A stretch of 64,000 bases of DNA from Candidatus Omnitrophota bacterium (GTDB taxonomy: Bacteria; Omnitrophota; Gorgyraeia; 2-01-FULL-45-10): positions 10 to 64,009 of the forward strand of contig JBAZNZ010000010.1 of the NCBI GenBank assembly GCA_041648975.1. The letters are read 5' to 3'. Made by a program: the position numbers and the translations under genes. Below, one piece after another: positions 12,001 to 24,713 of this stretch; positions within the stretch are counted from its first letter, which is position 1, and every line of letters begins with the position of its first letter. The notes under the pieces were generated by a model, which was given only the letters and a program-made list of their open reading frames with translations, was not told where the DNA came from and did no database searches.

Positions 12001-15000
12001 GCCCCTGGCGCCATGTGCCGTACAATTCGCATAGAATCGTGGTATCGCGCGGGAAGTATTCCCTCGTCCATCCATCGCGCCATCTCTCCATCAGTCACCT
12101 CCGCTTCGAAGAACATCCCTTCAGCCACCCATGAGAATTCGCGGCCCGGCCCTTTAAGAAGACGCGCCTCCAGCTCCTCGTCGGAAAGATTTTTAAGATC
12201 CGGGTTCCCGCGCGCCCATCCGAAAAATTCGTCTCTATCTTTCCATGACCAGAAGAGCCCCGCCGACTCTTCGCTAAAAATGAGCGGCGAGTCGGAGGCA
12301 AACTGGTTCGTGACAAAGTCGAGATCGCACTTAAGGCCTTTCGGCTTAAGCCTCTCCCGCACAAAACGCCTGAACCCTTCGTTGGTATTATCGGAAGCGA
12401 TAAGCCTTGGGTCTATCTTATAGTCATAGACGTCGTATTTTGAGCCGCTTTCCCGCGTTGCTCCCGGGCTCTCCTTGCCGGATGCGACATCGCGCTCATG
12501 CCACTCGCGAGCCATAGCTTTAGAAAGCGGGCTCTCCTGCCAGACGCCCTTAAACCATATATGGCCGGCCCCCAATTCATAGGCATACCAGTCCCATATA
12601 TCCTTTATCAACTTCGGGTCACAGTGCAGATATCGGGGATTAAGGTGCAGGCGTTTAAGTCCGCTGCTATCGTCTATTATCTTCGCTGGAACGCCATCCC
12701 CGAGATTCTGGTCCATGACCACATCCGGAATCTTGTCAAGAGTCGTCCCGAACGCCCGGGCAAGTCCGTGGGCGTCTACTTCAATAATAAGCTTGTCCGA
12801 ACGCTCAGAGGCCCTTACGGCTTCGCATAAACAAACTATAAGATCTTCCCGCTTATCTTGGACAAGAAAGTTGTCATCAATATAGAGCGTCTCATCGGCA
12901 TACACCGCTTCAACGGGCATCTTCGCGAATCGAATCCTGCTCCTGGCGTAAAGATCGGCTAGAAGCATCACGGCGCCATTATCTCCGCCGATGCGGCTTT
13001 TCGCCTCGGCGAGGACTGCGGCGAAATCGCTCTGGGCTTCCTGGTTTAACTCTATCTCTTTGCCCATGCCGCTTCGAATATCCGCCATTGCCGCGCCGAT
13101 ATTATCCGGCTTGAATCGGCAATATCCGATTACGGCCGACTTTGCCCTCACGTTTCCTGCGCCGGCAAGGGGAGTATCCGACTCTAGCCTTCCGAGCCCC
13201 CAGAGCACGGAAGCGTTTGACCACGCCTGCCTCCAGCACCCTTTGGGGTAATTCTTCTTACCCTCTCCGCCGGGGATTTGCGATGCCTCCGCATCAACGA
13301 GTTCCGGAGAGCCTCCGTTAAAGAGGTAGTCACCGCCCGTATACGGATCGCGCGCGAGCTCCATGCACTCATCCACCATTTTCGCTTTAGCCTCTTCCTT
13401 CGTCATATATCCGTATTCGGCCGCGCATAACATATAGAAAGGATAGAGCCACGGCCAACCGGTTCCGTTGTGATATGCCTTATCCCGATCTTCCTGTGGT
13501 TTATCCTTATCGTAATATCTGTAATAATACTCCCCGTAACCTTTGGGCCAGCCGATGACCTTGCCCTCTTCGTTATCGCGCGTATCCTCTACATACATCT
13601 TTACAGGCGGCGCGAGACTGCGCAAAGCTCCCGTTCCCGGAATAAGCAGGCGGTCGCGCGTTGATTCCACTATCCGTTTAGCGTGTTCGCCGGCCGCAAG
13701 GCCGAAATATACGACGAATATCTGGTTTGGCCTGACGCATGGGTCGCGCCTATTTTCCTGTTTCGATTGCTCCGCCGTCTGGAAACCCTCGGTCCCGAGG
13801 ATGTCGAAGACCGTGCCCTCTTCCTCGTTCCAGAAATATTCATCGAAATTATTCCGGATTTTTTCGGCGGTCTTCCTATATTCTGTCCTATTTTCAGGGT
13901 CTAATTCCCTCATCCTGTTCAGGGCATTGAACCATAGCGCCTGTATCTCGACCGGATATCCCTGGCGCAGGGTATTTTTGGTATCCATCCAGGTAAATCT
14001 GGCCGGACTATAGATGAAACCTGTCGCCGCATCGGCATGAACGCTTGACGGGTCATCGCCTGTGGTAGAGTATCTGGTCATGATAGCACGAAGAACGTCG
14101 CTCACCTTCCTGTTGTTTTCGCCTACTGCCATATCCAGGATCGCTATATCGTTAAATTTGTCGATGTGCCTGTAAATGGCCTCGATGAACCATAATGCGG
14201 CGTCCGACGATTCATACTTGCCGTGCACATTCGGGATAAGCCCATCTTTTTCCCATCGGGCCCATTTTAACAGGATCGCTCTAGTAGTATCGAACCGGCC
14301 GGTCTCGATGGCCCCAAGAAGAGATATCATGCTGTCACGGCCCCATTCCTGATGAGGAAAATTCGGAACGCCGGCTTCTATCGCGGCCAACCCTTCGCCA
14401 TCTATGAAAACGCGCTCAATAAAAGAGTCCATCATTCTTGCCTCAAGAGCTTTCTCTTTGTTTATTGTTATCTCAAATTCATGTTTCCGGCCGGGCTCAA
14501 GTTCGTAATAGATACTGCCGTCGGGGGAAATATTCTCCCCGGGTATAAACATTACTTCGCTTCCGGTGGAAAGATCCACATGCCTGGACGGCTGCGATAC
14601 ATCTACCCCCAGATGGTGAAGTTTTAAGGGGGCAATGCCGGACTTGGCCCGGTCCGAATGGTTCACAACGGACAGGCGCACCCTATCACCGTCTTTCTGC
14701 CATCTGGCCGCGATCAATATACCGTCGGAATCCGATATGATCCTGGATTCGGTAAATGTCCCATCAGCGGCCTGCCCTACCAGCTGCTGGCCCGCTGCCA
14801 TACCGACCGCAAGTTTCAGCAGCCTTGCGATGTCGCGGTTATAGAAGCCGTGACCGAGGGTTATGGCTGTGACGAGGGCTGCGGATATGGTTATGAATAT
14901 AGATATGGCCGTTACATGGGGTAAAAATAGGAACGGAATGATATATATGCTTCTCAAAAAAGTGCCAAGCCCTAAGATGGTGAGTATCTTTAAGGCGAAG

Positions 15001-18000
15001 TCCTTGGTTAATTTGGGAGGCGCGCGGGTGAGTTTACCGCTCTTATCGTATTCGTAGACTCCGCCCATATGGCCGATTGTAAATAATAAAACGGTCGCAG
15101 CCGAAATGCATGCGAATATACCTGTGTGATCATAACCTATTAAATACTGTGCTATACCTAACATACCGCCTATGATGGCCTCCTCGCGTAAACCGCATAC
15201 AAAAGCGATATTTTTATCCTGCCATCCCCTGCCCCGCAAATACGCGATGACAGGCGCAGCCTTTTCAGCATTTATCCTACCTTCTGTCTTGATCTTATTC
15301 CCAATATAACCCGGCGAACAGATGTTCAGGTCGGAGTCCGGAGGCACGGCGAAAAGATCCTTTTTGCCCGATGCGACAATAACACCGTCTGTCGTCTCAA
15401 CCTCTATATGCGCGTCGTAATGGCCCGGTACTCGGGCGGCCCAGTCGTTATGCGTCCATTTTTCATCTCCGGCGGGAAGCCCGGCGCTGACTACGCATTT
15501 CGTCATCGGCACTTTGACTTCGTTGCCGCCTGCAGAGACTACCATATTGACAGACTTGACGTCACCCCGAACATACGCATCTACGAGGAACGGCTCGCCG
15601 ACAACGCGTATCTGCTGAGTCTGCGGCTCTACATTGAGGATCTCTGTCACGCCTGTTTTATGTTCAGGCGGCTTTCTAAAGGATTTGAGATGCATGAGCA
15701 ATTTTACCGCTTCAGTCGCGCGTGCGGTCGTCTGATGCGCTTCTGCGCCGCCAACCCGCTTCAAGTTTCTCGCGGCGCCCAATAGGTCCTCCACCGTGAC
15801 GTCGCCCGGCAGCCTCATCTCCCACTGCGCCGTCTGCACACCGGGGCGGTTCAGCCTGTATTCATCTGTAAGGCCCAGTATATCGAGCCAGTTAAGCACT
15901 ACCATGCTTCCGGGCGAGGCGTATATCATCTCCAGTATCTTCTGGTGGACCTCCGGCGTGAACGCTCTGTAGCTCCCTTCCGGGCCGACAAAACGACTGT
16001 CTTCCGTTTTCCATTTCTTTATGAGCGCAGTCTTCTGAGCTTTAAGATCGGGATTACCATCCATCTCCTCTTCCCACCTCGTCCTGATGGTGCATGAATC
16101 TGAAACGCTTCCCGTTACGAACGCGTTAGGCAGGTGCTTTGACGGGTGGAACATATCACCGGGATCAAGCCCCCATATCACAGGAGTAAGTATCGAGCCG
16201 CCCAACCGGCGTGTCGACTGGTTGATATTTTCGGGAAGCGCGCCGAGCGTCTCCCATATCTCGACCATGCCTTCCTCCTGGGCGAACTTCAGGAATTCCG
16301 ACAGGACACTCTCGCCTTTCGCGAGCTTGAAATAACCCACCAAAACGCTGTCATTGGCTTGCGGCGGAAGCGCGCCGTCTTCAGGGAAGAGGTATTGCAC
16401 CATGAAGCCGCCGTCTTTGAGCATATCGCTCGGCGTAAGCCGTATGAAATCCCACATCGGCTCGCCTTTAAATACCTTCTTCTCGACAATATCCTCCCTG
16501 ACGCGCGGCGAGCCTGGCGGGAGCATTTCGCCGTGCTGGGCCTGCGGAACCATTCTCCCCATCTTTATCATATTATCAGGCCGTAAATTTCCGTGCTCAT
16601 CAAAAAGGAGCTGTAATGCGTCTTCGGGTAATCCCGGATGTTCTCCGCGTTGTCTCATATCCAAAAGCTTACCTTTAATAAGCCCCATGACTTCTTCACA
16701 CGCTTTCTTTTTAGACTTCTTTCCGGCAAGAACCTCTTGCCGTATCGCCTCTATCTTTTCGAAGAGGCCGAGTTTCTCAAGCGTCATATCTTCATCTATG
16801 TCCTGACTTATATGATAAGTACGGTAATATCCCAGGCCGTGGTCTTTGCGGTTATACATAAAACCGAGCTCTTTATACAACATGGCGTTGGCCTTAAGAA
16901 ACTCGAGCGTTGCGGGATTATCCCAGTCGAACGGATAGAACTGCCAGTGCTGACCGGCTGGATATGCCCCTTCGGGCGGGACGCCTTGCACGGTAAGGCG
17001 CCGGTAGCCGTTCTCTTTTTTCAATCCGAATACTTCGGGGTGAAGCCACGTATCTGCGCCGCCGAACGCGAACGGATGGTCTATGGCGAATTCGACGCCC
17101 TGTCTTCTGCCGTATCCCATAAGCTCTTCGAGCTGGCGGCGCGCCGCGAACTGGACGAATAACTGGAACTCTATCTCCTTGGCATGCCGCTGTCTGGCCC
17201 TCTCGATGGCCGGATTCGGCTCGCCTGTCCGTCTCGTCAGTCCGTAATCGCTTAAACCCTTGTCGTAATCATTCCATCTTCTCCAGTCCCATCCGCGCAT
17301 GTTGTTATTCAATAGCCCTTCGGTTTTAAGCTGACGATAAAGTATATGGTCGCTCAACTCCGAGCCGTTCTCCCGCAAGAATCGCTCATATTCGGCGTAT
17401 AGCGGATTTGATTTATCGTCTTTAAAATTACCCCAGACGCGCCTTAAGCAGTCGAGCTTTAATTGCGCCACCCTATAATGGTCCACCCTCTGCGCCGCAT
17501 TAAGCCTGGCGATCTCTGCCTGATTGTCCTTTATAAAATCGGACCCATCCTGCGCAGGATAATCTCTTAAGAATGCGGGAACGCTAAGATATTTAGGGTC
17601 AATGAGCTTGGAGCTCTCCATAGAATAAGGCGAGTTGGAATAAGAATCGGAGACCATGATGGGAAACCACTGGATGATATGCTGCCCCATCTCAGCGTTA
17701 AAATCGACCAGGGGCTTTACTGTATCGAAATCGAGCACCCCCCAGTCCTGCCTCGAACGGCCCTGCAAAAGCGGCATGAAATTTCCGTCTACACGCCGGC
17801 CCGCCTTGACGGGCGAGACAAATTTTTGCGAAACCAGGGCCTGCGGCTGCGAGGCGGTTCCGGAGGTTATTTTGCGCAGGTTCAGAAAATAGGCGAAGAA
17901 TATCGCAAGCGTGCTTCCCGTGAGGCAGGCCAGAAAAACACGGATGTAGACGTCCGAAACCAGCTGTATTCCGACATGACGCAGAAAATCGCCGCCTACT

Positions 18001-21000
18001 TTCCATAAGAAAGGTCTCTGTATGCGTTCCCTCACTTTTTGGACAGAAAATTCTTCTGCGCGTTCGGATCTTTCGCCTTTATAAGATACATTGTGGATTA
18101 TCATAGACACAACCGCATACCAGATCGTAACGACTATGGTGCAGCACGTTGCCAAAATAACTTTCATAAAATACGGCGTCGGCGACGCATAAACGTAATA
18201 TAGGAATGGCCCATTAAGCACGCCCACAAGAAGGCCCATTCCGAACACCTGGTTTATGTCGACTTTCCTGTTCGCGGAATACTGCGAGGAGAAATCTATA
18301 AGCATATTTGAAACTACGGTCATTATTGTGGAAAAGACGACCTGGTAATAGGTAAACGAGGTGAAATAAAGTCCTATAAGCCCTATTACAGAGACAAATA
18401 CAATCGGAATAATGAGACGCTTATTCAGCGTCTCGCCGGGCAGTGTCACCGAATATGACCAGCTCCTGTTTGGAAGCACGAGTTTAACCAAAAATTCCGC
18501 TATTACCTTTAACGCGGACGTGCGTACTTGCGGAGAAACAGGTTGATCGGTACCTCGAAACTGCGCTATCTCGCGCACCGACCTCTGCCCCGGAATGCTG
18601 TCATCCTCCTTGGCCATGTCCGGAGATTCGCCCTTGCGGCGGGGGACAGCTTTTCCCGCGACCGGGCCGGTTTCAGCGGGTTTTTTATATACCGTGATTA
18701 TATCGACCGGTTTGTTCGGGACCATCTGATTGCTAAGGGTATAAAGCTTCTGTTCATGCCGCAGGCCTTCAAATCCCTCCGTAATCAATATCGAGTCCTC
18801 GATAAGCGCCGCTCTCTCCTTCTGGCCGGCGAGCTTCCATTCATCGACCGCTTCAAGTTCATAATAATCGTCTGTGAATGCTATGAATAGCGCTCCTCCG
18901 GACTTAAGCACCCGGGCGATCTCCTCAAATAGCATGCGGTAATTTTTGGGCTCAAGATAGGCCATTCCGCTCGTTATCATAACGACATCGAAGCGCCCGT
19001 CCTCAAAATCGAGCCTTTGGTTTTCATTAAGATCCTGAACCACAGATGCCGTGAGTCGCCTATTGCCGGCCAATTCTATCCTGTTTAAACCGATACCTAC
19101 GACCTCCTCCACCGGTATCGAGCCGGGAATATACGTATTATATCCGCTAAACAGGTCAAGCACTTTTAATGGCCGGCCGGAGCTTCCGCGCGGCAATGAC
19201 TCCCTGGCTTTCTGTAATATTATCCTTTCGGCGGGCTTGACAAGATATGATCGGGTCCTAATCTCCCGGACAAAGCTTGAGGAAGGACGTTTCCGGCCGG
19301 ACTGGCTCATATCGTCTGCCATGTCCGGCACCTTACCCTTGCGCCGCGGTTTGTTCGCCGCCGATCTGACTTGAGCAAGTAAAGCCAATACCGGCGGACC
19401 GCCGAACCACCTCGAAAGTGTTGAGCGCCATGACACCGCCTCATGCAGCTTGTCGAGCGACCACCTGGCCCATACGCCGACGTTACCATCTTCGGCAGCC
19501 GCCTCTTCCAGGGCGCTGAGCGTGTCCTTTATATCGGACTGGCTCATCCCTTCGCATACGTACGAGAGCGCTTCAGCTGCGCTCCTCCTGACAACGGCCG
19601 GCCTGTCGGACCGCAGGATATCGATGAACTTTATCTTCGCCGCCGCCCTCAACGGGTCTGCCGGGTCCACCTTGAACGTGAAGACCCTTCCGAGGACGAA
19701 TAGCGTGTTCGCGAGCTCGTCATCTTTCAAGCTATCGAGTTTCGCCAATTCTAAGGACGCGTCGATATTGCCGTAATATACCTTGTCATGCGCTATCTCC
19801 GAAGCCGCGATTATCAGAGCGTATTTTTTCGGTACCGCTCTCTTCGTATATATGGCCGCCCTCTGGGCTATGACAGGGTTTGAAGCGCCTTCCTCAAGCA
19901 GCTTCTTCTTCTCCACCCTGATCTTATTTGAAAGCTCCTGCATTATCTTATAAGGATGCGTCTTGTAGCCGCCTGCCTTATACATCGCAAGTATCGTCTT
20001 TGTGATAGAAGTAGAATAATCAGATATGGCATCCAGGACATGGCTCTTCAGTCCTGTAAATACCTTCATGTAATAATGGATCACCTCTTCGGTGGAGGTG
20101 TATATGCCGCCGCCGTTCGCGACAGGGCCCGGTATATAGAGAATTCCCATCTCGTGAAGAATGTTCTCGAGACCGCTCTCGAACGCGTTGTTCGACCCCT
20201 CGACTATGAGCTTCGCCCTTATCCTTGATATATTGTTCTTCTGTTTTGTAAATATATTAGACCCCGCCGCGAGCACAAGCGCCGTGCAATCCTTATACAG
20301 GATCTCGTCCGGGTCACCGTCATATCTTTCGACGCCCTCGCCTTGATAAGCCTTGGCCAATTCAAACTTCTCGCCGTTCTCGAACATCTGACGCAGCCTC
20401 ATCAACTCATCGATATCGAGGCCCTTTGCGGAATAGACGGCTCCGAACTTGTCCGAGACACCTGTTATCTTGAAGCCGAGCCTCTTATATTCGGTAAGAA
20501 GGAGTTTTACAACCCCGCTTCCTACATCGCCGAAGCCCTGGATTATTACCGTCTTATTATTTTCATCTATCTTTACCCCGTGATGCGCAAGCGCTTCAGT
20601 ATCTGAAATTGCTACGGCAAGCGAGTCAACGACTCCACGGCTTGTAACCATCCATGGCATATGCGGAAGGCTTCCCATAGCCTCGGGCCTGCTTGTGGTG
20701 GCAAGTATAGAGCGCTTACCGAGGGGCTTCAGGATCTTATTACGGATTACTCTTTCCCGGAATCGCTTATCGGCCTCATCCTGCAGCCACGTCATCTCTG
20801 TTTCGCCCATATCCATGTCCGGGCCGGCTATGTAAAGGCCGCACAACATGCCTGACGCTATGGATGAAGCCACCCAATTCCGTATCACGCTCTCTTTGTG
20901 CGCGCCCGGAACGGCCAGGAAGACTGTTTTGCCGCCGTCAAAGAAGACGTCCCACAAGGGATTTTTGTCTCCCATCGCTTCCGCAAGCCGCGCGGATTCG

Positions 21001-24000
21001 GCGAGGACCTGGCCTGATTTATTCGCAAATTCGGCTTCACTTGTGAACTGATACCACCGGCACCCGCCCTTCGCCAGCGTAGTGCCTGCGTCGCCCGAAC
21101 AGCTGTTCACTGAAGTAACGACAAGAGAGCCGTCTTCCATCACGGTAATAGCGACCCTAAAGGGCTTCTTATCCTTATACCAGCTGAACATCTCTGAATT
21201 AGCGGAGTCGAACATAAGAGTAAGCGGCAGTTTTCTTTTAACACAATACCTGTAAGCGTCGGCGTCTTCTATGAGGGCTTTTCTTAATATATCTTTTGCG
21301 TTGGGAAGATCGGCGGGAAGAAGGCGAGTCGCACAGGCTGTCAACGCCTCATCCAATTTTTGTTCCACTGTAAGCGCTAACTCTTTCTGCGCGAATAAAA
21401 CCCGGTTCACCGCCCGGAACGCCGCAAACGCCGCTGCTGCTCCGGCGGCCGCGCCGAAGAACCAGAATAACGGCCCGAATATTACAGCGATATAGATATC
21501 ATCCAGAAGCCCCGGCCCACGGCACAATCCGATCACCGCGAGGGACGACATAAGCGCCGCGCCTATCGCGGCAGATACGCCTATGAACTTCAGTCCGATG
21601 CGCTCCCTTAGCAGGATCAGCTTATCCAGCGGCGATTCGGTAACCGGCGAATCTTTGCGCTGCGCCTGTCCGTCCTCATCCTCCGCCGCCATGTTCGGGC
21701 TCTCGGTCTTTGCCCTGACAAACATCCCGGCAGCATGCCTTCTCTTCGCGACCGTTACGACAACCGTCTGATCGGCGTCGGACTCTTCCATTTGGGTGGC
21801 TATCTCAAGACGGCCGTTATCGTCTATCTCCCGCCTAACTACATCGGCGGTCAGATCGCTCTGTCTGCTGTCTAATATTTCAATAAATATCGCCATGCCC
21901 GGCGGCGACAAAAGTTGAGCAATGTTGCTGAATAGCATGCTTCTTGCGTTTACCGGCTGCGGATCAAGCGCGCCTATCCTCTTCTCCTGGTTCATTGAAA
22001 ATTCGTCATAACCGCTCGCGATCCTTCCTGCCTCATGCAGCGTCCTATTTACGGATATGACATCGAAGCCGCCGTTCATCCGTTTCGGAAATGCCCGGTC
22101 CGTTATGTCGTCCTCGACTATCTCCACATCGAGCGGACCGATAGCGCCTGATGACCTATAGTCATTTACGAGCCTGAGATACTCGGCCAATATTGTCGCG
22201 ATGAATGAGTTATTATCGACAAGCGCGATCCTCTTCCCCGGCTGCGCGACGCTTATCCAATATAATCCTTCGAGTCCCGCTCCGAACAGCGCAGCCCGGC
22301 CTGATTCTATCATCTCTTTTCCCAGTGGTTCGGAATCGGGTATCAATATTTCCGGATTGCCGCCCGTCATCATCGGAATGTAATAATTCCGGTAAACATA
22401 CCGCGCATAGGCGCACGCGAAAGATATGCGGTATCGTTCCAGCATATCAGGCTTTCTATATAGAACATTAGCCAACGTGGTCAATAGACGAGATAAGGCT
22501 TTCGAGCCGTCATCGTTTTGCATCTCTTCCGACAGAAGATTGAGCGTAGAAAACCTGGGCTTAAACTGGTGCGGAAGGTATAAAGGCGCTGTCAGGATAT
22601 AACTTATGGCATCCGGGTCGATCCTGCGAAGGGTATCCTTCTCCCCTTCGGATAATTCGGCAATCTCTTTTATGACATCCGCGAAATCTTCGCCTCCGGC
22701 GGCGTGGCTCACGTAGATGTGCGCGCCGTTTAAAGTACCGGATGATATATGAAGTTCTGAGTTGCTCCCCACGGCGTTGCTTACAAGCGATAAAATTATC
22801 GAGGATATGCCTCTGTCCTGGTAATTCACTCCGCCGACATCTGCGCGAATGTCCACAACTCCCAAATCGAGGGTCAGATTGCCGTTTCCGTAGTTGGTCT
22901 TGAAACCGAATTCCATAGTCCCAACTACCGCGCCGTTCGATCGGCGTAATATCTCGATAGTTATCGGCCCCGGAGCCTCGACACCCCTTAAATTGAGCCT
23001 GAACCGTTCGCCTGTATTATCGGCGAATTCATCGTCCTGCAGTTCCAGCACCTTTGCGATGCTCAGCAGGCGGCTTATTAAACGGCCGTCGTGCTCTATC
23101 GCATCTTCGGGATGCTCTGCCCCGGCTATAACGCCGTGGTCGTTTATAATCCTGCCACCCGGTAGTTCATATCCGGGTTTTACTATATGCTGGCACTCTT
23201 CCAGGAGCAGTTGCGCAAGGTCTTCCGCCGATAACTTATTCAGCAAGATCTCCCCTAACCACATTGTCGGCTTAAGGCCGTGTATCTCTTCGCTAAAACC
23301 TGTTCTCGTACTGCATAATATATTCCTGCCTTTATCATTGCCTATAATCACGCAACCTGCAATAACGCTTATAGAGATATTGCGCGCCGTTTCGATGATA
23401 TCGACCCGCTGTTTAGCCGTAAGGTTTCGGAAATTCGGCCTCTCCGACAGTATCATTGCCAGCCGCCCGGGCTCTTTAGCCTCCCGCATCTTTTTGAAGA
23501 GGCCGTTTGCGGCGTATTTTTCCTGCAACGCCTGCGATTTCTTGTCGGCGGTCGGCTTATAAGGCAGCCTCCTGATTCGTTTTGCCGTATCGGTATTGTG
23601 GTCCAGCTCAAAGGCATGTTCCGCACTTATATGATAGCGTAAGAATGGATTAGTATGATCTACATCGTCTCCGGGTTCATCCTCGATATCGGGTAATTCA
23701 TGCCGCCGTAGGGGCGAATACGGCCCGCGGCCTTTTGCGCGATACCCTGCGCCGGGAATAGCCATGTTAGGAGCGACGCGTTTCCTGCGGCGCTCTTCGT
23801 TCTGTAAAGAAATTAGGCCGATGACACGCGACCTGTCCAGCTGCGTGGCTATAGCAAGCGGCATGATACAGGCCGCAACACAAACCGTCCGCCTTATTCC
23901 GGGATAGGACTCTGCCATGCGCTTTGCGACGCCGGCAAGGTTCAGGATGCTCTCAGGCGAGCCGAGGCCTCCGTATGCGAGATGGAGGAGCAAAGCTGCG

Positions 24001-24713
24001 ATCGTAATAGATACGGCTGCGCTGACAGCAGGGACAATAGCGCGCCGCAGGTTGAAGAAGGGCCATGAAAAGCGCCTCCCGGGCTCGGCGCGGCTTGCGG
24101 GAATTGCTTTAGTCTCGATGGCGGGCAATTTCTCTTCAGGTTCTTTTGCCGCTACTTGTTTTTCCGCAGGCAGAGATTTAGCCGGCGCAACCTGCTCCTG
24201 GGGCTCGACCTTGCCGGCTTCCGGAGACTCGAAGAGCTGCTCATATAGCAGCTCTCTCCGGTTAACCGGTATCGATACCATTACCTTCTTATTACGATAT
24301 TTGTTTATATTAGATTCTAAAGGATCAAACTTAAAATACCGGAGGGTATAACCTGAAAAATTTATGAGGACTTCGTCATAAAATATATTGCAGACCATTC
24401 CATTGTCCTGAAGCCACTCGTGGTCCTGTTCTGCCATCGTCCTGACAGCCTTCTTGACATCGTCCAGGGTTAGGTCAGCCTTTTCCTTTCCAGAAAGCCT
24501 CTGGATAAGCACGTCAATGAACCTGACGCTTGCCTTAGGACCGGAATCTTTGAGCTTCAGGAAAGATTCAACCGCTACTTTGTTATTCCGGGGCTTTCTT
24601 TCGCTGAAAAAGTCGGGGTTCGCCCAGGTGATATCCTGGGCAATAAAAGTGATGACAAGGATGGCTGCGATTATCCTTATGGGCCGGTTGAATCTTCTGG
24701 ATGGTGTTTGCAT
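1..24713 (-). CDS. Giant multidomain membrane-associated protein, N-terminal >8,237 codons inside the window; stop codon lies beyond the window start. Mosaic of alpha-glucan enzyme modules (GT35, GH77, GDE, 2x GH13-like) plus ELFV-dehydrogenase-like and SAM-MTase-like modules and several TM clusters.
   Basis: ATG at 24713-24711 with an in-frame TAA 5 codons upstream. The frame (codon top coordinate = 2 mod 3) was hand-translated at 24713-24580, 20759-20520, 14219-14100, 12050-11970, 4379-4140 and 140-1 and is open everywhere. The track lists no minus-strand ORF in this frame, as expected if the frame never closes inside the window. The + strand ORFs here are short, mutually overlapping and R/V/F/S-rich, typical of antisense. 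N-terminus MQTPSRRFNRPIRIIAAILVITFIAQDITWA looks like a signal anchor. Confidence 0.8.
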   Translation of the reverse strand, partial: MQTPSRRFNRPIRIIAAILVITFIAQDITWANPDFFSERKPRNNKVAVESFLKLKDSGPKASVRFIDVLIQRLSGKEKADLTLDDVKKAVRTMAEQDHEWLQDNGMVCNIFYDEVLINFSGYTLRYFKFDPLESNINKYRNKKVMVSIPVNRRELLYEQLFESPEAGKVEPQEQVAPAKSLPAEKQVAAKEPEEKLPAIETKAIPASRAEPGRRFSWPFFNLRRAIVPAVSAAVSITIAALLLHLAYGGLGSPESILNLAGVAKRMAESYPGIRRTVCVAACIMPLAIATQLDRSRVIGLISLQNEERRRKRVAPNMAIPGAGYRAKGRGPYSPLRRHELPDIEDEPGDDVDHTNPFLRYHISAEHAFELDHNTDTAKRIRRLPYKPTADKKSQALQEKYAANGLFKKMREAKEPGRLAMILSERPNFRNLTAKQRVDIIETARNISISVIAGCVIIGNDKGRNILCSTRTGFSEEIHGLKPTMWLGEILLNKLSAEDLAQLLLEECQHIVKPGYELPGGRIINDHGVIAGAEHPEDAIEHDGRLISRLLSIAKVLELQDDEFADNTGERFRLNLRGVEAPGPITIEILRRSNGAVVGTMEFGFKTNYGNGNLTLDLGVVDIRADVGGVNYQDRGISSIILSLVSNAVGSNSELHISSGTLNGAHIYVSHAAGGEDFADVIKEIAELSEGEKDTLRRIDPDAISYILTAPLYLPHQFKPRFSTLNLLSEEMQNDDGSKALSRLLTTLANVLYRKPDMLERYRISFACAYARYVYRNYYIPMMTGGNPEILIPDSEPLGKEMIESGRAALFGAGLEGLYWISVAQPGKRIALVDNNSFIATILAEYLRLVNDYRSSGAIGPLDVEIVEDDITDRAFPKRMNGGFDVISVNRTLHEAGRIASGYDEFSMNQEKRIGALDPQPVNARSMLFSNIAQLLSPPGMAIFIEILDSRQSDLTADVVRREIDDNGRLEIATQMEESDADQTVVVTVAKRRHAAGMFVRAKTESPNMAAEDEDGQAQRKDSPVTESPLDKLILLRERIGLKFIGVSAAIGAALMSSLAVIGLCRGPGLLDDIYIAVIFGPLFWFFGAAAGAAAAFAAFRAVNRVLFAQKELALTVEQKLDEALTACATRLLPADLPNAKDILRKALIEDADAYRYCVKRKLPLTLMFDSANSEMFSWYKDKKPFRVAITVMEDGSLVVTSVNSCSGDAGTTLAKGGCRWYQFTSEAEFANKSGQVLAESARLAEAMGDKNPLWDVFFDGGKTVFLAVPGAHKESVIRNWVASSIASGMLCGLYIAGPDMDMGETEMTWLQDEADKRFRERVIRNKILKPLGKRSILATTSRPEAMGSLPHMPWMVTSRGVVDSLAVAISDTEALAHHGVKIDENNKTVIIQGFGDVGSGVVKLLLTEYKRLGFKITGVSDKFGAVYSAKGLDIDELMRLRQMFENGEKFELAKAYQGEGVERYDGDPDEILYKDCTALVLAAGSNIFTKQKNNISRIRAKLIVEGSNNAFESGLENILHEMGILYIPGPVANGGGIYTSTEEVIHYYMKVFTGLKSHVLDAISDYSTSITKTILAMYKAGGYKTHPYKIMQELSNKIRVEKKKLLEEGASNPVIAQRAAIYTKRAVPKKYALIIAASEIAHDKVYYGNIDASLELAKLDSLKDDELANTLFVLGRVFTFKVDPADPLRAAAKIKFIDILRSDRPAVVRRSAAEALSYVCEGMSQSDIKDTLSALEEAAAEDGNVGVWARWSLDKLHEAVSWRSTLSRWFGGPPVLALLAQVRSAANKPRRKGKVPDMADDMSQSGRKRPSSSFVREIRTRSYLVKPAERIILQKARESLPRGSSGRPLKVLDLFSGYNTYIPGSIPVEEVVGIGLNRIELAGNRRLTASVVQDLNENQRLDFEDGRFDVVMITSGMAYLEPKNYRMLFEEIARVLKSGGALFIAFTDDYYELEAVDEWKLAGQKERAALIEDSILITEGFEGLRHEQKLYTLSNQMVPNKPVDIITVYKKPAETGPVAGKAVPRRKGESPDMAKEDDSIPGQRSVREIAQFRGTDQPVSPQVRTSALKVIAEFLVKLVLPNRSWSYSVTLPGETLNKRLIIPIVFVSVIGLIGLYFTSFTYYQVVFSTIMTVVSNMLIDFSSQYSANRKVDINQVFGMGLLVGVLNGPFLYYVYASPTPYFMKVILATCCTIVVTIWYAVVSMIIHNVSYKGERSERAEEFSVQKVRERIQRPFLWKVGGDFLRHVGIQLVSDVYIRVFLACLTGSTLAIFFAYFLNLRKITSGTASQPQALVSQKFVSPVKAGRRVDGNFMPLLQGRSRQDWGVLDFDTVKPLVDFNAEMGQHIIQWFPIMVSDSYSNSPYSMESSKLIDPKYLSVPAFLRDYPAQDGSDFIKDNQAEIARLNAAQRVDHYRVAQLKLDCLRRVWGNFKDDKSNPLYAEYERFLRENGSELSDHILYRQLKTEGLLNNNMRGWDWRRWNDYDKGLSDYGLTRRTGEPNPAIERARQRHAKEIEFQLFVQFAARRQLEELMGYGRRQGVEFAIDHPFAFGGADTWLHPEVFGLKKENGYRRLTVQGVPPEGAYPAGQHWQFYPFDWDNPATLEFLKANAMLYKELGFMYNRKDHGLGYYRTYHISQDIDEDMTLEKLGLFEKIEAIRQEVLAGKKSKKKACEEVMGLIKGKLLDMRQRGEHPGLPEDALQLLFDEHGNLRPDNMIKMGRMVPQAQHGEMLPPGSPRVREDIVEKKVFKGEPMWDFIRLTPSDMLKDGGFMVQYLFPEDGALPPQANDSVLVGYFKLAKGESVLSEFLKFAQEEGMVEIWETLGALPENINQSTRRLGGSILTPVIWGLDPGDMFHPSKHLPNAFVTGSVSDSCTIRTRWEEEMDGNPDLKAQKTALIKKWKTEDSRFVGPEGSYRAFTPEVHQKILEMIYASPGSMVVLNWLDILGLTDEYRLNRPGVQTAQWEMRLPGDVTVEDLLGAARNLKRVGGAEAHQTTARATEAVKLLMHLKSFRKPPEHKTGVTEILNVEPQTQQIRVVGEPFLVDAYVRGDVKSVNMVVSAGGNEVKVPMTKCVVSAGLPAGDEKWTHNDWAARVPGHYDAHIEVETTDGVIVASGKKDLFAVPPDSDLNICSPGYIGNKIKTEGRINAEKAAPVIAYLRGRGWQDKNIAFVCGLREEAIIGGMLGIAQYLIGYDHTGIFACISAATVLLFTIGHMGGVYEYDKSGKLTRAPPKLTKDFALKILTILGLGTFLRSIYIIPFLFLPHVTAISIFITISAALVTAITLGHGFYNRDIARLLKLAVGMAAGQQLVGQAADGTFTESRIISDSDGILIAARWQKDGDRVRLSVVNHSDRAKSGIAPLKLHHLGVDVSQPSRHVDLSTGSEVMFIPGENISPDGSIYYELEPGRKHEFEITINKEKALEARMMDSFIERVFIDGEGLAAIEAGVPNFPHQEWGRDSMISLLGAIETGRFDTTRAILLKWARWEKDGLIPNVHGKYESSDAALWFIEAIYRHIDKFNDIAILDMAVGENNRKVSDVLRAIMTRYSTTGDDPSSVHADAATGFIYSPARFTWMDTKNTLRQGYPVEIQALWFNALNRMRELDPENRTEYRKTAEKIRNNFDEYFWNEEEGTVFDILGTEGFQTAEQSKQENRRDPCVRPNQIFVVYFGLAAGEHAKRIVESTRDRLLIPGTGALRSLAPPVKMYVEDTRDNEEGKVIGWPKGYGEYYYRYYDKDKPQEDRDKAYHNGTGWPWLYPFYMLCAAEYGYMTKEEAKAKMVDECMELARDPYTGGDYLFNGGSPELVDAEASQIPGGEGKKNYPKGCWRQAWSNASVLWGLGRLESDTPLAGAGNVRAKSAVIGYCRFKPDNIGAAMADIRSGMGKEIELNQEAQSDFAAVLAEAKSRIGGDNGAVMLLADLYARSRIRFAKMPVEAVYADETLYIDDNFLVQDKREDLIVCLCEAVRASERSDKLIIEVDAHGLARAFGTTLDKIPDVVMDQNLGDGVPAKIIDDSSGLKRLHLNPRYLHCDPKLIKDIWDWYAYELGAGHIWFKGVWQESPLSKAMAREWHERDVASGKESPGATRESGSKYDVYDYKIDPRLIASDNTNEGFRRFVRERLKPKGLKCDLDFVTNQFASDSPLIFSEESAGLFWSWKDRDEFFGWARGNPDLKNLSDEELEARLLKGPGREFSWVAEGMFFEAEVTDGEMARWMDEGILPARYHDSMRIVRHMAPGALSLALINYSKGQNRGKIADILGSIADMTCEGGVRADLADWIYWNRYFDEKLKPWGISREAAGRMMPREIWDDLMAGLREKHPGLLILGEVYGENNRVFFREMGMRQGGCAVSYNKEFADTLSGGTAQAVRGYLFGAGGTSAQARDATMYTNHDEGVGLERLGSMEHVRAAAAICAMGGGYMLIPFIEFLPIERPPTREKTAEKNWRDSAVYIPEYPFENLDIGLAEESNSFTHRPHRGVQRRWAHAESVRKSQPDVAVALRSDGVTHTIVVPWYVDTLENSGLIPMVRHTGQEDVLEVVNDSDVPTETTICLDRIFGPGAAGDSMEGELSNVVLSTGTKVFFGPRTLVIELPKYGRCRLVFRQTEAYKNGRESADALLAEAYTRARPESEGGDGAAWASNFYSHHKDEISFAEFKAVFEDVLERLLFSNQDIIRRGTAWIISHEEFLGPVAFLSAADNQQLENLLQGSGDRSVLPLALDHKFAGLGAIIKFFELVSAAKQRWIIAQLMSAAMAVDDINLRTQIMKEVFSSMPAALPLIAEAGRLKMPAGTEEALMQRRYKQIPMMRAGKIKDMITPAVAAKVFVRKRESSDGEDIYEITEEDTGITLNDIARQNAWVEAENTCDIAGAQPLRPRLINLKVKSEESMDAFALIADGEVYLLFLGDNHTGAILPESFGFLPEAGAIEGFSGTYLLFDINTKRSERTTDKRQLTAEPLPVSIPQGGQVFHLIPAFDKERPGIMQVMVRFLGGLDRLRQNLERLLESIIIPQGNTIYLVGVHREGEIGKMLNDSKLSPPDHLYTRDIGGERVQYRVVVRDTPKARKNETASAFSVSDMADPDVIDKVKTCSQWLAGRKITTAVDITGHLTPDSPLVVKHPYWCVPHTNVPVQWRADGIPEGLSEQQILETQGVSEGPRSAAFLLYVPCNDPNDPLVVKLKERGFVSGIEKIGGKPTGRIRVLISHNRTHRAMTSTAALDLRHPKVHRYLLNTIRAWIESGVTVFRIDMADRFPIELLAEFRKEFPQARFITEHYNLFGALIDIFRKSGIDEFYDYSELWTRLRDQFSKEDSAAPVQRWLYNAQKYLTIGIFVNFVSNHDEDVALSMYEGNREKYLCDLAITAFLPGYFMFNFPDALGFMMPGYRDRHTGELRHDIRRHATYEKFRQLVKETNEGRPLDGETYEALPYDTSIAGGVANVINAKGDPIFRKGVMLNAPPQDECVYFTRSYQGRTAIVVANRSPEPRTLEITKYLNMPDVEKTVAEFLPWEVRVYFVDGTTLHERDIVNGSMLYRRARQLFGDGTNHAWALQLCDECRAWQAPLNEVRRAVRLMLRYGDENMKKGSLWILTGADGGFKQEFDYAEEGNFAIVRDSLHTGDMKAGIALGQLVADAVIVSGLRERILAKITHAFGPDLGGLSIPQITNLLHLEKALLEQEHGPEWAGKFLESRKGAFGNETFFASCYQAVAAWSRSAVQADRDAAGWMLYDPQSELSSRFRDYYLARISAVKDRLEHDDIQAIEALKGLIDEVIEIPGLARRVSSEMVNAVCSGIAHFNEHEQLRTLYSAEAMLLRQTLNIAWARAIIENHKYDMTEPGRYSAFKSLVLEWNLEKDDALHDAAQWILFDPASAFSAIFMREHTDTLAGFGERLKQGDQSALDGLREYLAAAEKMPGLNECLIDKAVGTVRMVIGHIKADSDLKALLGRLLDMEADLLRQKYQAGWAREFVSGHRNHWQEENFLEVFRAVILTYNKSDNKDTVDAAQWMLFKAESPFSEKFFDKYKRMIDDMRESVKAEDAAASGTLEVLLHDAKEIAGLNRRLTDEVISRAKTGAPGEDTIFYCQLAARLLFVAANQVVAGTITRFFARQDVQMPGAARRRLETISKDLAVVEGLVVNEEGAAVPFREELAAVLADPARLNFDNYLRLESAYRKYIEGTGIQRQASRKLGLKDDERVVYLSLEYGLSEWLRIYGGGLGILSGDTIRGLNDRYGPNTFVGVGLAYKNGYFEQHIVTAEDHANDHHRNVPVGSQVEINVPTDFSKLGEIVQETDALTGKKNDIVLKIEAGCDKYIYAKIWRIRVGRVEMYLLDTNIPENHTKDDAHPRAKELTNNLYDRGKDASGSIVPAHKDELRFMQELLLGVGGMRAVASCGMRPALVHMNESHSAFAGLELISQEQKRRSAGAPAGSRFEDAKRAAHDRMIFTTHTPIEAGNEQFDEELFRDYFEHYANLNGLNYEDIKKIFLHPSRRFNNQDMVCMADAALELSCRANAVAKSHARVSRTLYKNGNKIIAITNAVHRRFWQMKPMQAFLEGLLKHAKSLGYLKRMAMDRLNEEQIRQLIGYADPDKYLAMRKAAKKAAIEDLRQKRPASRLEGLDDNALTIVVARRAAPYKRLDLVLKRIETLRAEATKRGLKLQIVFAGKAHPADDKGKDIIRSINEFILSDRNKGDVFFVENYDIDVAKHLASIADVWLNNPIPPLEASGTSGMKAGLCGALSVSTPDGWVLEAENAWDEEKNQPKPLSEIKGAAFLFNESSIKVKDDKDIESANRRNEETADNMLKALTEVMEVYANNKNRWAELSKNAVYDTMAHFTMGRFAGDYERDMYLPSLRESRALAAATAAKGLVAPSTLPITQSISRWWYNRVLRLNLGEEELLRVTALEIAPWFEQLIKVGIPFGLFAILERLFPAIGLFRTGILTSIIGIGGLIFIILHLKSMRAPPVRIGTVPTSVDSTVRGQSLFKQLAAPAIISIFDTIAVFFLPTSPWIAIGVTAISHFIVNFIIMRLRMRGHEIGYATLQATAKVGVVSVVPSLRLNVDNRIVDDNFMEAVHYFNSEVLVSSKPSGLPLEPLTWEKVLDVVELFRGDRKNKEYSDEIRTERLRTLKERLPVDTDILKIANTRFDNENDLFDAAVDLYIYIIGRQILIDHAKKGEGRAHAKPGLPGFDTVREYRPVNAFNSYLPHPAGAHNRMAYFIVSYLFRNNGYKGALFTRREEFGNSGLFGYYFVTNNASAKPRLMNFFKAHMKKEGPDMAGDFAGSIQSDFFAALKQEGLLLPKYARQECIITSNILAEILSARFNIPIGGNDSVRIEIIPGYYKYKDALPVYHQWIAVYTGDEEPSLYIDASFGQFESTYKDTVIVRPYFEKSKNLIDSRSDFLDTIATLGMDLDGINELSLRSEEVGAAPKIVIRYNDYLHAERIRSGKWVYPFEQTIRSAMDRIKIRFARPWQPATLPLTQSIGRWWYNKVLKLNLGEEELLRGTAIEIAPWFEQILKIGAPFGLFAVLEYLFPAISIFRTGILTSIIGIGGLIFTILHLKSMRAPPDKIFKQSIAPAIVSIFDTIAVFFLASSPWIAIGITAVSHFIVNFAVTRLRQKGIGVGYAVLPADMNELWDKPAIMPGSIFGTGWFASLAVSPLIEELLRALFYVNGGWVGFFYISATLIAVHYFNKSAYIELYKKMNNGEEPPGGADMYQRVFGIPVAVMLGTLFVAALSCFTGIKNTFPDIAANFMIAHLTGNIFAKLYSLRYPRDILMPASLAPVTTRQAHDLYHSNISQEMRKISDTLDARLKIYGLRLGSRPHRGGIMHYDIEKAIKDIVEEERRRMLRAGKVDDDVDGQEIVLFTGLHPVKLWLEDGIVVILNPGFDVDHAGRNELTVYARKRSKVIHEKSELKGWMHFAESEGIASEEDIVEKSVLGDRIMEWANKRDAQGMLVNKDKAAEARKRLHQSACRKELEYLLTNEWGLFPTASGEIMRRLPNAAIEYIIDNGLKIEILRLGSPARNPDLLDISPDGKTIDISYKCLAAHTPQWFEHRILNYIHFRRLLISYDHSLEYACAVEFWAEYQTFKALEKTNPDGAGLTPDLKKYFNACTAWVTPQLDEETRMRIVTENIYGDVTDRLEDALVEEGETRRNAGLAIEDLDADYIVNIIAFDDLDLELKEKLEELEMETEDLGIGNNLDPYIASVPQNRASLKGDTLSSAAQQGPQSPDMASFDELRTPSRASRGMA
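1890..4200 (-). repeat. Duplicated ~170-aa four-helix transmembrane module inside the giant ORF (two copies about 1.8 kb apart)
   Basis: The antisense + ORFs 1861..2439 and 3550..4224 are about 75 percent identical to each other. Sense strand: TLPITQSISRWWYNRVLRLNLGEEELLRVTALEIAPWFEQLIKVGIPFGLFAILERLFPAIGLFRTGILTSIIGIGGLIF (about 4150-3900) versus TLPLTQSIGRWWYNKVLKLNLGEEELLRGTAIEIAPWFEQILKIGAPFGLFAVLEYLFPAISIFRTGILTSIIGIGGLIF (about 2350-2100). Confidence 0.6.
4215..6200 (-). other. Domain of giant ORF: GT35 alpha-glucan (glycogen/maltodextrin) phosphorylase module
   Basis: VVYLSLEYGLSEWLRIYGGGLGILSGDTIRGLNDRYGPNTFVGVGLAYKNGYFEQ (N-terminal GGLGxLAGD block), MNESHSAFAGLE, RMIFTTHTPIEAGNEQF and the PLP-lysine block EASGTSGMKAGLCGA (codon at 4557-4559). 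The C-terminus was translated codon by codon at 4379-4215. Confidence 0.7.
6650..7650 (-). repeat. Three tandem ~145-aa (about 435 nt) helical repeats inside the giant ORF
   Basis: DAAGWMLYDPQSELSSRFRDYY, DAAQWILFDPASAFSAIFMREH and DAAQWMLFKAESPFSEKFFDKY, anchored at about 7582, 7171 and 6740. Confidence 0.5.
8550..9450 (-). other. Domain of giant ORF: GH13 catalytic module 2
   Basis: GRIRVLISHNRTHRA (region I DxVxNHxS), DLRHPKVHRYLLNTIRAWIESGVTVFRIDMADRF (region II GFRxDxA), ARFITEHY (region III Glu), FVSNHDED (region IV). Confidence 0.55.
11400..12700 (-). other. Domain of giant ORF: GH13 (alpha-amylase superfamily)-like module 1
   Basis: GAGHIWFKGVWQESP, YDVYDYKIDPRL (GYDxxDYxxIDPxFG block), DLDFVTNQFASDSP (region I, His replaced by Gln), ARYHDSMRIVRHM (region II candidate), LILGEVYGEN (region III), YTNHDE (region IV). 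Confidence 0.5.
13150..14800 (-). other. Domain of giant ORF: glycogen-debranching-enzyme-like module (GDE_N plus amylo-alpha-1,6-glucosidase GDE_C)
   Basis: Translation checked codon by codon at 14219-14100 (KYESSDAALWFIEAIYRHIDKF...). Also FTWMDTKNTLRQGYPVEIQALWFNAL, AYHNGTGWPWLYPFYM and CWRQAWSNASVLWGLG, which are hallmark GDE_C blocks. Confidence 0.65.
15780..17770 (-). other. Domain of giant ORF: GH77 4-alpha-glucanotransferase (amylomaltase-like) module
   Basis: PIMVSDSYSNSPYSMESSKLIDP (matches GDSPYQSFSAFAGNPYLID), YGRRQGVEFAIDHPFAFGGADTWLHPEVF, YNRKDHGLGYYRTYHI (IDH region) and the C-terminal VVLNWLDILGLTDEYRLNRPGVQTAQWEMRLP (matches PMQDLLGLGSEARMNTPG..GNWRWRL). Confidence 0.7.
17900..18480 (-). 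other. Polytopic transmembrane cluster (about 5 helices) between the MTase and GH77 modules of the giant ORF
   Basis: RLIIPIVFVSVIGLIGLYFTSFTYYQVVFSTIMTVVSNMLIDF...LLVGVLNGPFLYYVYAS...VILATCCTIVVTIWYAVVSMIIHNV...LACLTGSTLAIFFAYFLNL. Comparable clusters occur at about 14850-15300, 21300-21760 and 23950-24160. Confidence 0.5.
18850..19230 (-). other. Domain of giant ORF: class-I SAM-dependent methyltransferase-like module (second)
   Basis: RPLKVLDLFSGYNTYIP (motif I region) ... LDFEDGRFDVVMITSGMAYLEPKNYRMLFEEIARVLKSGGALFIAF (motifs II-IV), translated from 19190-18860. Confidence 0.55.
19990..21180 (-). other. Domain of giant ORF: Glu/Leu/Phe/Val dehydrogenase-like module
   Basis: Hand-translated motifs DGGKTVFLAVPG, IAGPDMDMGETEMTWLQDE, TVIIQGFGDVGSGVVKLL and IVEGSNNAFESGLENILHEMGILYIPGPVANGGGI match the GDH-family GGGKGG / GPDxDxGxxEM / QGFGNVGS / EGANGP...NAGGV blocks. 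Confidence 0.6.
21950..22650 (-). other. Domain of giant ORF: class-I SAM-methyltransferase-like module (first of two)
   Basis: GAGLEGLY...RIALVDNNSFIAT...EDDITDRAFPKRMNGGFDVISVNRTLHEAGR...LLSPPGMAIFIEIL follows the motif I / II / III / post-III order of Rossmann MTases. Weaker than the second copy. Confidence 0.35.

Follow-up and report, generated by a model that had tools for sequence, protein, structure and literature searches.

The stretch analyzed here, called the window throughout, comprises 64,000 nucleotides (nt) of a contig from a Candidatus Omnitrophota bacterium (GCA_041648975.1, JBAZNZ010000010.1). An earlier reading of this DNA made from the letters alone (the sequence-only reading) had placed at 18850-22650 an ELFV-dehydrogenase-like domain flanked by two S-adenosylmethionine (SAM) methyltransferase-like domains, lying N-terminal to glucan enzymes in the same chain. 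We find that this region is the interior of a single minus-strand frame that stays open for 8,244 codons, from 24734 to 3; the first ATG lies at 24713, so that 8,237 codons of the giant open reading frame (ORF) are visible before it runs off the start of the window. No conventional ORF of at least 150 amino acids (aa) is listed in 18850-22650 because the whole region sits inside this one frame leaving the window. Residue numbers used here count from the codon at 24734, and 7 should be subtracted for numbering from the ATG.

A Pfam search over the whole visible ORF identified GH77, GDE_C, alpha-amylase and phosphorylase domains farther along the same chain, confirming in one open frame the order proposed earlier. 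The region given for the three domains was correct, with the exception of its distal end, as the second methyltransferase runs to ~18681, ~170 nt beyond 18850. When Pfam matches, structural models and a hydropathy scan are combined, the chain reads from its N-terminus as a signal-anchor, one or more transmembrane helices, domain X, an unassigned conserved domain, the proximal methyltransferase-fold domain (MT1), a membrane hairpin, a glutamate dehydrogenase (GDH)-like module, HEAT-like repeats, the distal methyltransferase (MT2), a helix cluster, and then GH77 and the other glucan modules. The principal features are as follows.

3..24713, minus strand: giant ORF, visible part (frame scan and identical ENA contig)
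23043..23678, minus strand: domain X, residues 353-564 (HMMER homologs, alignment, AlphaFold2 and Foldseek)
21732..22331, minus strand: MT1, an orphan domain, residues ~802-1001 (AlphaFold2 model and Foldseek)
21432..21587, minus strand: predicted two-helix membrane hairpin between MT1 and the GDH-like module, residues 1050-1101 (hydropathy scan only)
19935..21374, minus strand: GDH-like catalytic module, comprising domain I and the dinucleotide-binding domain (Pfam, PDB profile and alignments)
19410..19934, minus strand: helical region with HEAT-like repeats (VVRRSAAEALSYV, VGVWARWSLDKL), the C-terminal part of the GDH-like family module, which as a whole spans residues 1121-1790
18681..19202, minus strand: MT2, class I methyltransferase of the 'VLDLxSSWxSH / QDLNEN' subfamily, residues ~1845-2018
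17883..18416, minus strand: transmembrane helix cluster between MT2 and GH77, ~4-6 helices, residues 2107-2284 (hydropathy and Pfam)
15807-17753, minus strand: GH77 amylomaltase module (Pfam)

An open frame of 8,244 codons is expected by chance with a probability of ~1e-172. The gene flanking the giant ORF (26044-27417) has exact matches on three public contigs; on the ENA contig (k141_1611482 of ERZ27247363) the downstream gene call is truncated where the contig stops and thus gives a protein of at least 11,109 aa. Over its first 8,670 nt the giant gene reads the same in the window, in this ENA assembly and in the separately deposited Logan assembly. A metagenome-assembled genome (MAG; GCA_028715235.1) holds a near-identical copy of the giant gene (P0064 / L005) in which one ~50-residue linker is replaced in frame. 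This linker (~24069-24221, minus strand; residues ~172-222) is hypervariable between strains, with a different, longer sequence in the MAG copy between flanks that are ~99% identical. Together, the identical assemblies, the in-frame strain variation and the open frame indicate that the ORF is real and under selection to stay open.

The central element of the region, the GDH-like module, is confirmed at the sequence level. ELFV_dehydrog (PF00208) matches with E=5.9e-28 and 98.6 bits against a Pfam gathering cutoff of 23.4, in agreement with the domain proposed by the sequence-only reading, and the three peptides on which that proposal leaned are all present in the minus-strand frame (IAGPDMDMGETEM at 20793-20831, IQGFGDVGSG at 20514-20543 and PGPVANGGGI at 20103-20132). 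The module matches GDHs in the PDB at E=1.5e-18; with a profile of its own family the match to solved GDH structures reaches E=6e-36. When aligned by MAFFT with canonical GDHs from fetched loci, it pairs with them over the whole N-terminal domain. A homolog search with residues 1110-1800 retrieved 51 proteins, the best of them from Omnitrophota at 64-77% identity, followed by a large set of mostly ~650-800-aa proteins carrying PF00208 with or without HEAT_2, those with names coming from Gemmataceae and Altiarchaeales; a genome scan added relatives from Elusimicrobiota, Myxococcales and Armatimonadaceae. Members of the family align in the same order along their full length, beginning with an N-terminal helical prefix, continuing with the two GDH domains and a helical region and ending with C-terminal HEAT repeats (HEAT_2, E=0.007 at 19410..19934, with PF13646 annotated in family members). 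What the giant ORF contains is therefore the equivalent of a complete stand-alone protein. Its counterparts (Gemmataceae P0011, P0029 and P0044; Altiarchaeales P0006; Omnitrophota P0002 and P0003) share the same invariant residues over the whole module but are encoded on their own, with ~760 aa in Gemmataceae, or carry a single additional fused domain. In the Omnitrophota MAG STD1_87, for example, a gene of its own encodes the homolog, which has a separate signal-anchor, and no glycogen genes lie nearby.

Alignment to solved enzymes places the functional residues of the module at the following positions, numbered as in bovine GDH and, where added, as in the Clostridium symbiosum enzyme.

21054-21077, minus strand: K90 equivalent, the Lys of LAKGGCRW (alignment to bovine GDH)
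20958-20978, minus strand: K114 equivalent, the Lys of AMGDKNP (alignment to bovine GDH)
20922-20945, minus strand: catalytic K126 equivalent (K125 in C. symbiosum), the Lys of FFDGGKTV (alignment to GDHs)
20814-20828, minus strand: D168 equivalent (D165 in C. symbiosum), the Asp of AGPDM (alignment to GDHs)
20514-20543, minus strand: GxGxxG dinucleotide loop, QGFGDVG (alignment)
20181-20204, minus strand: EGSNN, at the EGANN position of the family
20091-20114, minus strand: S381 equivalent, the Ser of GGGIYTST (alignment to bovine GDH)

Among 18 family sequences with 28-77% identity, the equivalents of K90, K114, K126, D168 and S381, together with QGFGDVG/EGANN, fall in columns that are invariant or at least 90% conserved, so that the catalytic Lys and Asp, whose inspection the sequence-only reading had proposed, are both in place. 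Of the others, K90 and K114 are the Lys that bind carboxylates in GDH, and K90 and S381 read the carboxylate of the substrate side chain. The best-conserved positions of the family are the catalytic and cofactor ones (DGGK, GPDM, QGFGDVG, EGANN and AN.GG..ST), which is the pattern expected of an active enzyme and not of a scaffold. To judge from its sequence, the module is thus probably active, most likely as an NAD(P)-dependent dehydrogenase whose substrate, which is decidedly uncertain, would be glutamate or an acidic amino acid like it. Canonical hexameric GDHs (PF02812 plus PF00208; bovine and human GLUD1, 1nr1 and 1l1f, and the Thermotoga enzyme, 1b26) share with it the two-domain layout, the K90/K114/K126/D168/S381 equivalents and the GxGxxG, EGAN and AN.GG motifs. 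They differ in that identity is ~25-30% and that the module here adds a ~100-residue N-terminal helical prefix and a ~190-residue helical/HEAT tail. Since it is embedded in a membrane-tethered chain, formation of a hexamer is uncertain. Within domain I, the KGGxRYY strand follows DGGKT in Gemmataceae-type members and precedes it in Omnitrophota members and canonical GDH (alignment columns ~300-440), which looks like a local permutation or insertion in these sequences.

The two methyltransferase-like domains fared differently. MT2 is recognizable at the sequence level, with Methyltransf_11 scoring 33.2 bits (cutoff 21.2) and Methyltransf_25 scoring 32.8 bits (cutoff 27), each profile being aligned through its C-terminal half only. 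The whole of MT2 aligns with stand-alone proteins of ~180-320 aa, most of them ~310 aa, and those with a source name come from a diatom (Skeletonema) and other marine eukaryote transcriptome datasets. The subfamily invariants VLDL.S, G.G.N..EL, QDLNEN and ARVLK.GG are all kept.

MT1, in contrast, has no match in Pfam, NCBIfam or PDB sequence searches and is identified by its predicted fold. Its diagnostic segments are listed here.

22266-22289, minus strand: motif I, LFGAGLEG, the Gly-rich loop after beta1
22209-22229, minus strand: IALVDNN, with the acidic residue at the end of beta2
22098-22118, minus strand: VEDDITD
22023-22067, minus strand: FDVISVNRTLHEAGR

Comparison with PDB sequences, both for MT1 alone and for a five-sequence profile, gave only chance matches (enterotoxin B and phosphoenolpyruvate carboxylase), and a word-seeded homolog search gave nothing at E<=1e-3. 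An exhaustive HMMER search found four homologs, all in regions of other long proteins that lack Pfam annotation and that adjoin an M48 peptidase or a CheR domain. An AlphaFold2 model built from the five-sequence alignment has a mean predicted local distance difference test (pLDDT) score of 72.7 and a predicted template modeling (pTM) score of 0.76, with a core of 80-92, and follows the beta1-alphaA-beta2...beta6-beta7 order of class I methyltransferases through to a terminal beta6-beta7 hairpin. Foldseek returned more than 1,000 PDB matches to this model at E<=1e-3, the top 50 all being class I SAM methyltransferases with probability 1.00. All members of the five-sequence family have the GxGxxG motif (G113/G115/G118), the D135 that closes beta2 and LHEAGR, and the DxT/D motif is also kept; D135 is the Asp of IALVDNN, at the place of the SAM-binding acidic residue that was to be inspected. 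MT1 is thus assigned to the class I SAM methyltransferases by its predicted fold only. The two domains are nonetheless not detectably related to each other, as hhalign of the MT1 and MT2 families gave a probability of 4.9%. Relative to characterized class I enzymes (SgvM, 8rxg; NNMT, 2iip; NodS, 3ofj; ArsM, 4fr0), MT2 resembles them through its above-cutoff Pfam matches and MT1 through a predicted seven-strand Rossmann-like fold, but MT1 has no detectable sequence relationship to any family and MT2 carries the unusual motif I LDLFSGYN. None of the segments is a low-complexity linker, the finding that the sequence-only reading had named as one that would count against it.

The membrane hairpin between MT1 and the GDH-like module provides an indication of where these domains may reside. 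In the hydropathy scan, basic residues lie on both outer flanks of the hairpin while the connecting loop is short with few charges, and this pattern would fit a placement of both MT1 and the GDH-like module on one side of the membrane, that of the cytoplasm with its SAM and NAD(P)H.

The sequence-only reading had found no obvious pathway logic in this combination of domains, and we found none specific to the methyltransferase-GDH-methyltransferase order. The GDH-like module was accompanied by MT1 or MT2 in none of the ~110 related proteins and ORFs retrieved, and the trio therefore looks like a concatenation and not a pathway unit. The explanation lies instead in the kind of protein that harbors it. 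Giant proteins of Omnitrophota have been described as "Archaeovorin" (West-Roberts et al. 2023, bioRxiv 10.1101/2023.11.21.568195) and as "multi-enzyme metabolic clusters" (bioRxiv 10.64898/2026.06.07.730766). In both preprints they contain methyltransferase, glycosyl-enzyme and HEAT domains with many transmembrane segments, and one of the two reports PF08241 in 137 long proteins (10.1101/2023.11.21.568195; 10.64898/2026.06.07.730766). The ORF studied here is of Omnitrophota origin, exceeds the 7,000-10,000 aa that mark "Archaeovorin"-like proteins and has many transmembrane helices as well as methyltransferase, glycosyl-enzyme and HEAT content, and the nearest named relatives of its modules are all Candidatus Omnitrophota. 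It thus belongs to the described class of membrane-anchored multi-enzyme giant proteins, which accounts for the odd domain combination. It shares with other members an ORF of more than 10,000 aa, transmembrane helices between modules and the tiling of methyltransferase, glycoside hydrolase/transferase-type and HEAT domains with no dominant Pfam family, but its sugar modules are glycogen-degrading (GH77, GDE and phosphorylase) unlike the GT5/GT1 emphasized in the preprints. A divergent SecA_DEAD domain is present in most full-length "Archaeovorin"-like examples; Pfam detected none in the 8,237 visible residues, with at least 2,870 further residues lying beyond the window. An ELFV/GDH module is not mentioned in the main text of either preprint, nor in one supplementary file of the 2026 preprint, and the literature searched contained nothing on a GDH module, polyprotein processing or the GDH-HEAT family in the context of giant proteins.

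A relationship to the large (~180 kDa, L_180 class) NAD-GDHs, with which a comparison had been proposed, was not supported, as no match to Bac_GDH (PF05088) was found at E<=0.01 anywhere in the visible ORF. These enzymes also carry a GDH catalytic core within a much longer polypeptide; their flanking domains are unrelated, and the closest solved relatives of the module here are small and medium GDHs.

The boundaries between modules are themselves marked by a short recurrent sequence with the consensus K-P-E-[SAP]-P-[DN]-M-[AST], found at module boundaries in this and other Omnitrophota long proteins. The copies in the window are the following.

23760..23774, minus strand: RKRV-APNMA (A322), a weak copy upstream of domain X with a low score
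21687..21701, minus strand: ...AKTE-SPNMA-AEDEDG, 11 residues past the end of MT1; linker KTESPNMAAEDEDG
19317..19331, minus strand: ...RRKGK-VPDMA-DDMS, between the HEAT region and MT2; linker RRKGKVPDMADDMS
18606..18626, minus strand: ...RRKGE-SPDMA-KEDD, ~18 residues past the end of MT2, the best-scoring copy in the window; linker RRKGESPDMAKEDD
2922-2939 and 48-65, minus strand: two further copies

P[DN]MA occurs 6 times in the visible ORF against 0.12 expected, with a maximum of 2 in 2,000 shuffles, and three of the copies stand directly after MT1, after GDH-HEAT and after MT2 in linkers that are short and charged. The same signal emerges from 37 other long proteins, which were found through an N-terminal query, are unrelated in overall architecture and come from Omnitrophota wherever a source is named: these contain 18 copies of PDM[AST] against 1.05 expected, within the extended consensus K-P-E-[SAP]-P-D-M-A. 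Carriers include P0065-P0075 and L086-L089. A position-specific scoring matrix (PSSM) built from the foreign copies only gave its five highest scores in the 8,244-residue ORF to window copies, A322 being the one of the six left out, and two of these scores exceeded those of every shuffle. In one carrier, P0070, three copies lie 34 residues after a Bac_transf domain, 23 after Abhydrolase_1 and 16 before domain X. Copies use different synonymous codons and some, such as KPSAPNMT and KPLAPNMS of L087, have no Shine-Dalgarno-like purine run, so conservation seems to act on the peptide. The motif is absent among the carbohydrate modules (residues ~2040-7260). Neither giant-protein preprint mentions this motif or domain X, and the extended consensus is absent from the literature searched; the motif thus appears new and, on its sequence distribution, is a candidate processing site.

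Domain X, near the N-terminus of the chain, recurs in ~28 other long proteins, all from Omnitrophota where a source is named, and usually starts ~20 residues after a junction motif. Its invariant residues are an E-E-x-x-H on a helix and a downstream His. Searches of its family members against Pfam at E<=5 gave scattered single chance matches only, and its profile matched in the PDB only a non-significant stretch resembling cyclic nucleotide-binding sequence. The AlphaFold2 model has a pLDDT of 82, and its best Foldseek matches in the PDB are all zinc metallopeptidases (selecase, HtpX, Ste24, jannalysin and SPRTN), at the non-significant level of E 0.3-5 and probability <=0.54. Compared with HExxH, a Glu takes the place of the first zinc-ligand His. 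Between domain X and MT1 there is a further conserved domain without a Pfam match (~22728-23054, minus strand; residues 561-669), which is common to eight other long proteins (P0065, P0067, P0094, P0097-P0100 and P0064, the variant from the other strain).

We favor, with a probability of roughly 0.75, an interpretation in which 18850-22650 is the interior of one giant Omnitrophota ORF of more than 11,000 codons that carries three self-contained enzyme modules strung along the chain and joined by in-frame fusion. The first would be MT1, with its orphan class I SAM-methyltransferase fold; the second, following the membrane hairpin, would be a full-length copy of the ELFV dehydrogenase + helical + HEAT family serving as a working dehydrogenase and not as a dead scaffold; and the third would be MT2, the class I methyltransferase assigned to the LDLxSSWxSH subfamily. 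With K-P-E-x-P-D-M-A in the short charged linkers between them, these would be independent enzymes brought together by fusion and not successive steps of one methyltransferase-GDH-methyltransferase pathway. The frame itself, the domain assignments, the conserved catalytic residues, the limits of the modules and the recurrence of the motif are directly shown, while enzymatic activity, a cytoplasmic location and the mutual independence of the modules are inferred.

Several observations weigh against this interpretation. ELFV_dehydrog_N (PF02812), the other dehydrogenase profile named for the search, is colinear with the C-terminal match but stays below its cutoff (E=0.0038; 17.4 against 25.3 bits), so that the profile search bore out ELFV_dehydrog and Methyltransf_11/25 and not this N-terminal family. 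NCBIfam searches of four segments gave only far-sub-threshold GDH and methyltransferase matches, the GDH equivalog models reaching 79.5 against a cutoff of 750 bits, and nothing for MT1 or the N-terminal 670 residues. The PROSITE-type GDH signature is [LIV]-x(2)-G-G-[SAG]-K-x-[GV]-x(3)-[DNST]-[PL]; the turn before the catalytic Lys of the module is DGGK and not GG[SAG]K, and a regular-expression search for the signature therefore found no match in it. The equivalent of GDH R211 is replaced, the family having a conserved H-x-x-W there, and the substrate may therefore not be glutamate. Moreover, the GDH-like module stands beside sugar enzymes in three lineages, namely beside the glucan enzymes here, fused with its HEAT part to a hexokinase in the Omnitrophota SO_2016_LW1_45 (L008:2-3718), and in a 5,862-aa ORF with a glucosamine-6-P-isomerase/6PGL-like domain in an Elusimicrobiota single-amplified genome (L013:3212-20797). 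The module may accordingly be linked to sugar metabolism, although sugar domains are the commonest content of Omnitrophota giant proteins in the preprint literature and the adjacency may be coincidence. Neighborhoods of the stand-alone genes gave no consistent functional clue in Gemmataceae (L015; a two-component system and a sugar ABC transporter) or in an archaeon (L012; RpiA, prefoldin, FtsY and polysaccharide deacetylase). For the methyltransferases, MT1 is assigned through a predicted fold from a five-sequence alignment, and MT2 has VLDLFSGYN as motif I in place of the canonical (E/D)xGxGxG, the whole subfamily having VLDLxSSWxSH. Finally, the membrane topology has the hydropathy scan as its one source, and West-Roberts et al. 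(2023; bioRxiv 10.1101/2023.11.21.568195) predict most domains of such proteins to be extracellular, with some of the calls doubted there.

Part of this evidence could also be read as a sign that the GDH-like and methyltransferase folds are non-catalytic domains repurposed as binding or regulatory scaffolds for the downstream glucan enzymes, as the sequence-only reading had suggested. The strong divergence from known families, the loss of the R211 equivalent, the attached HEAT repeats, which are a protein-interaction module, and the recurrence beside sugar enzymes would all suit such a role. We nevertheless consider it unlikely, given that the catalytic Lys and Asp, the substrate-binding Lys, Ser381 and the dinucleotide loop are the best-conserved columns of the family, that the module is a whole stand-alone family found with the same architecture as free-standing proteins in organisms without giant proteins, and that MT1 and MT2 keep their cofactor-pocket motifs, each domain retaining its family's invariant residues in motifs I, II and III. 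Far less probable still is that the ORF is an artefact, whether through chimeric assembly or as a run of pseudogenes that decayed and fused. The sequence is of metagenome type and ORFs of this size are unusual; set against this are the 24.7 kb without a stop, the retention of family-conserved residues in every module and the ample documentation of giant ORFs in the phylum, and an assembly error in particular is rejected on account of the identical independent assemblies and the in-frame strain variation.

The junction motif raises a different question, namely whether the giant ORF amounts to a whole gene cluster in a single frame, in which K-P-E-x-P-D-M-[AST] would be protease sites that release or trim MT1, GDH-HEAT and MT2, possibly through the action of the zincin-like domain X. 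This proposal extends the interpretation favored above and does not contradict it, and we regard it as tentative. In viral and eukaryotic polyproteins, an embedded protease acts at short recurrent cleavage motifs. The likeness is by analogy only: one long ORF with whole-protein modules, a junction motif and a possible peptidase-like domain in the chain is found here too, but a bacterial chain that threads the membrane is involved, the fold evidence for a peptidase is weak and the motif is missing from a large part of the protein, processing being only proposed here. The enrichment of P[DN]MA and its placement right after each of the three modules, the ranking by foreign copies, the positions in P0070 near domain ends and before domain X, and conservation at the peptide level with varying codons are all consistent with cleavage, as are the confident model of domain X with weak matches exclusively to zinc metallopeptidases and its invariant E-E-x-x-H and His. 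Conversely, those Foldseek matches are non-significant and the first His of HExxH is Glu, the lack of copies in residues ~2040-7260 means that processing would be only partial, and a role in docking or structure would explain a conserved linker motif equally well. Whether and where giant proteins are cleaved was stated as unknown by West-Roberts et al. (2023; 10.1101/2023.11.21.568195). The same motif could instead mark translation, its Met being an internal initiation codon or a relic of the starts of once-separate genes. Bacterial N-termini typically prefer Ala, Ser or Thr as the second residue, which the terminal M-[AST] of the motif resembles, and stand-alone family members begin MA... (P0011). 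Pairing with the anti-Shine-Dalgarno sequence averages -5.1 kcal/mol at motif ATGs versus -3.2 kcal/mol at 199 other in-frame ATGs, a borderline difference (one-sided p=0.05) that is mixed in other loci. However, what precedes genuine gene starts in the window is a GGAGG-type site with an A-rich spacer and not CCGGAC, the L087 copies lack any such site while the peptide is kept through synonymous codon change, and without stop codons internal starts would yield only nested giant products, making this explanation improbable.

Outside these modules, a multi-helix membrane module is duplicated at 3672-4142 and 1866-2336 (minus strand; residues 6865-7021 and 7467-7623), with 122/157 residues identical. 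It is followed by a region of the EELLR...H...N type (residues ~7640-7780) that by eye resembles CPBP/CAAX proteases and has no Pfam match at E<=0.01. Between the second amylase-like module and the phosphorylase module (~6700-8100, minus strand; residues ~5560-6100), three tandem helical units of ~150 residues each can be made out by eye, with the repeated pattern ...AAxWMLxDPxSxxSxxFxxxY...IPGLxxRxxxExV.... Two more long ORFs lie upstream of the giant gene, at 54212-59509 (minus strand; 1,765 aa) and at 60243-63998 (minus strand; at least 1,251 aa, cut by the end of the window), and neither contains a copy of P[DNSAE]MA.

The odd enzyme modules of this chain thus provide another example of a described class of giant proteins. 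The GDH-like module points to a widespread, unstudied "ELFV dehydrogenase + HEAT" family in Omnitrophota, Altiarchaeales, Elusimicrobiota, Gemmataceae, Myxococcales and Armatimonadaceae, for which the literature searched gives no published function and whose clear limits suit it to enzymatic study. Of the by-products of the analysis the junction motif is the most interesting, since with it the question of cleavage becomes testable: it provides exact residues to seek in proteomic data and a peptide to present to the candidate embedded peptidase. If the proposed processing is true, these motifs would be the long-sought processing sites and the giant ORF would encode a bacterial polyprotein, in essence an operon condensed into a single reading frame.

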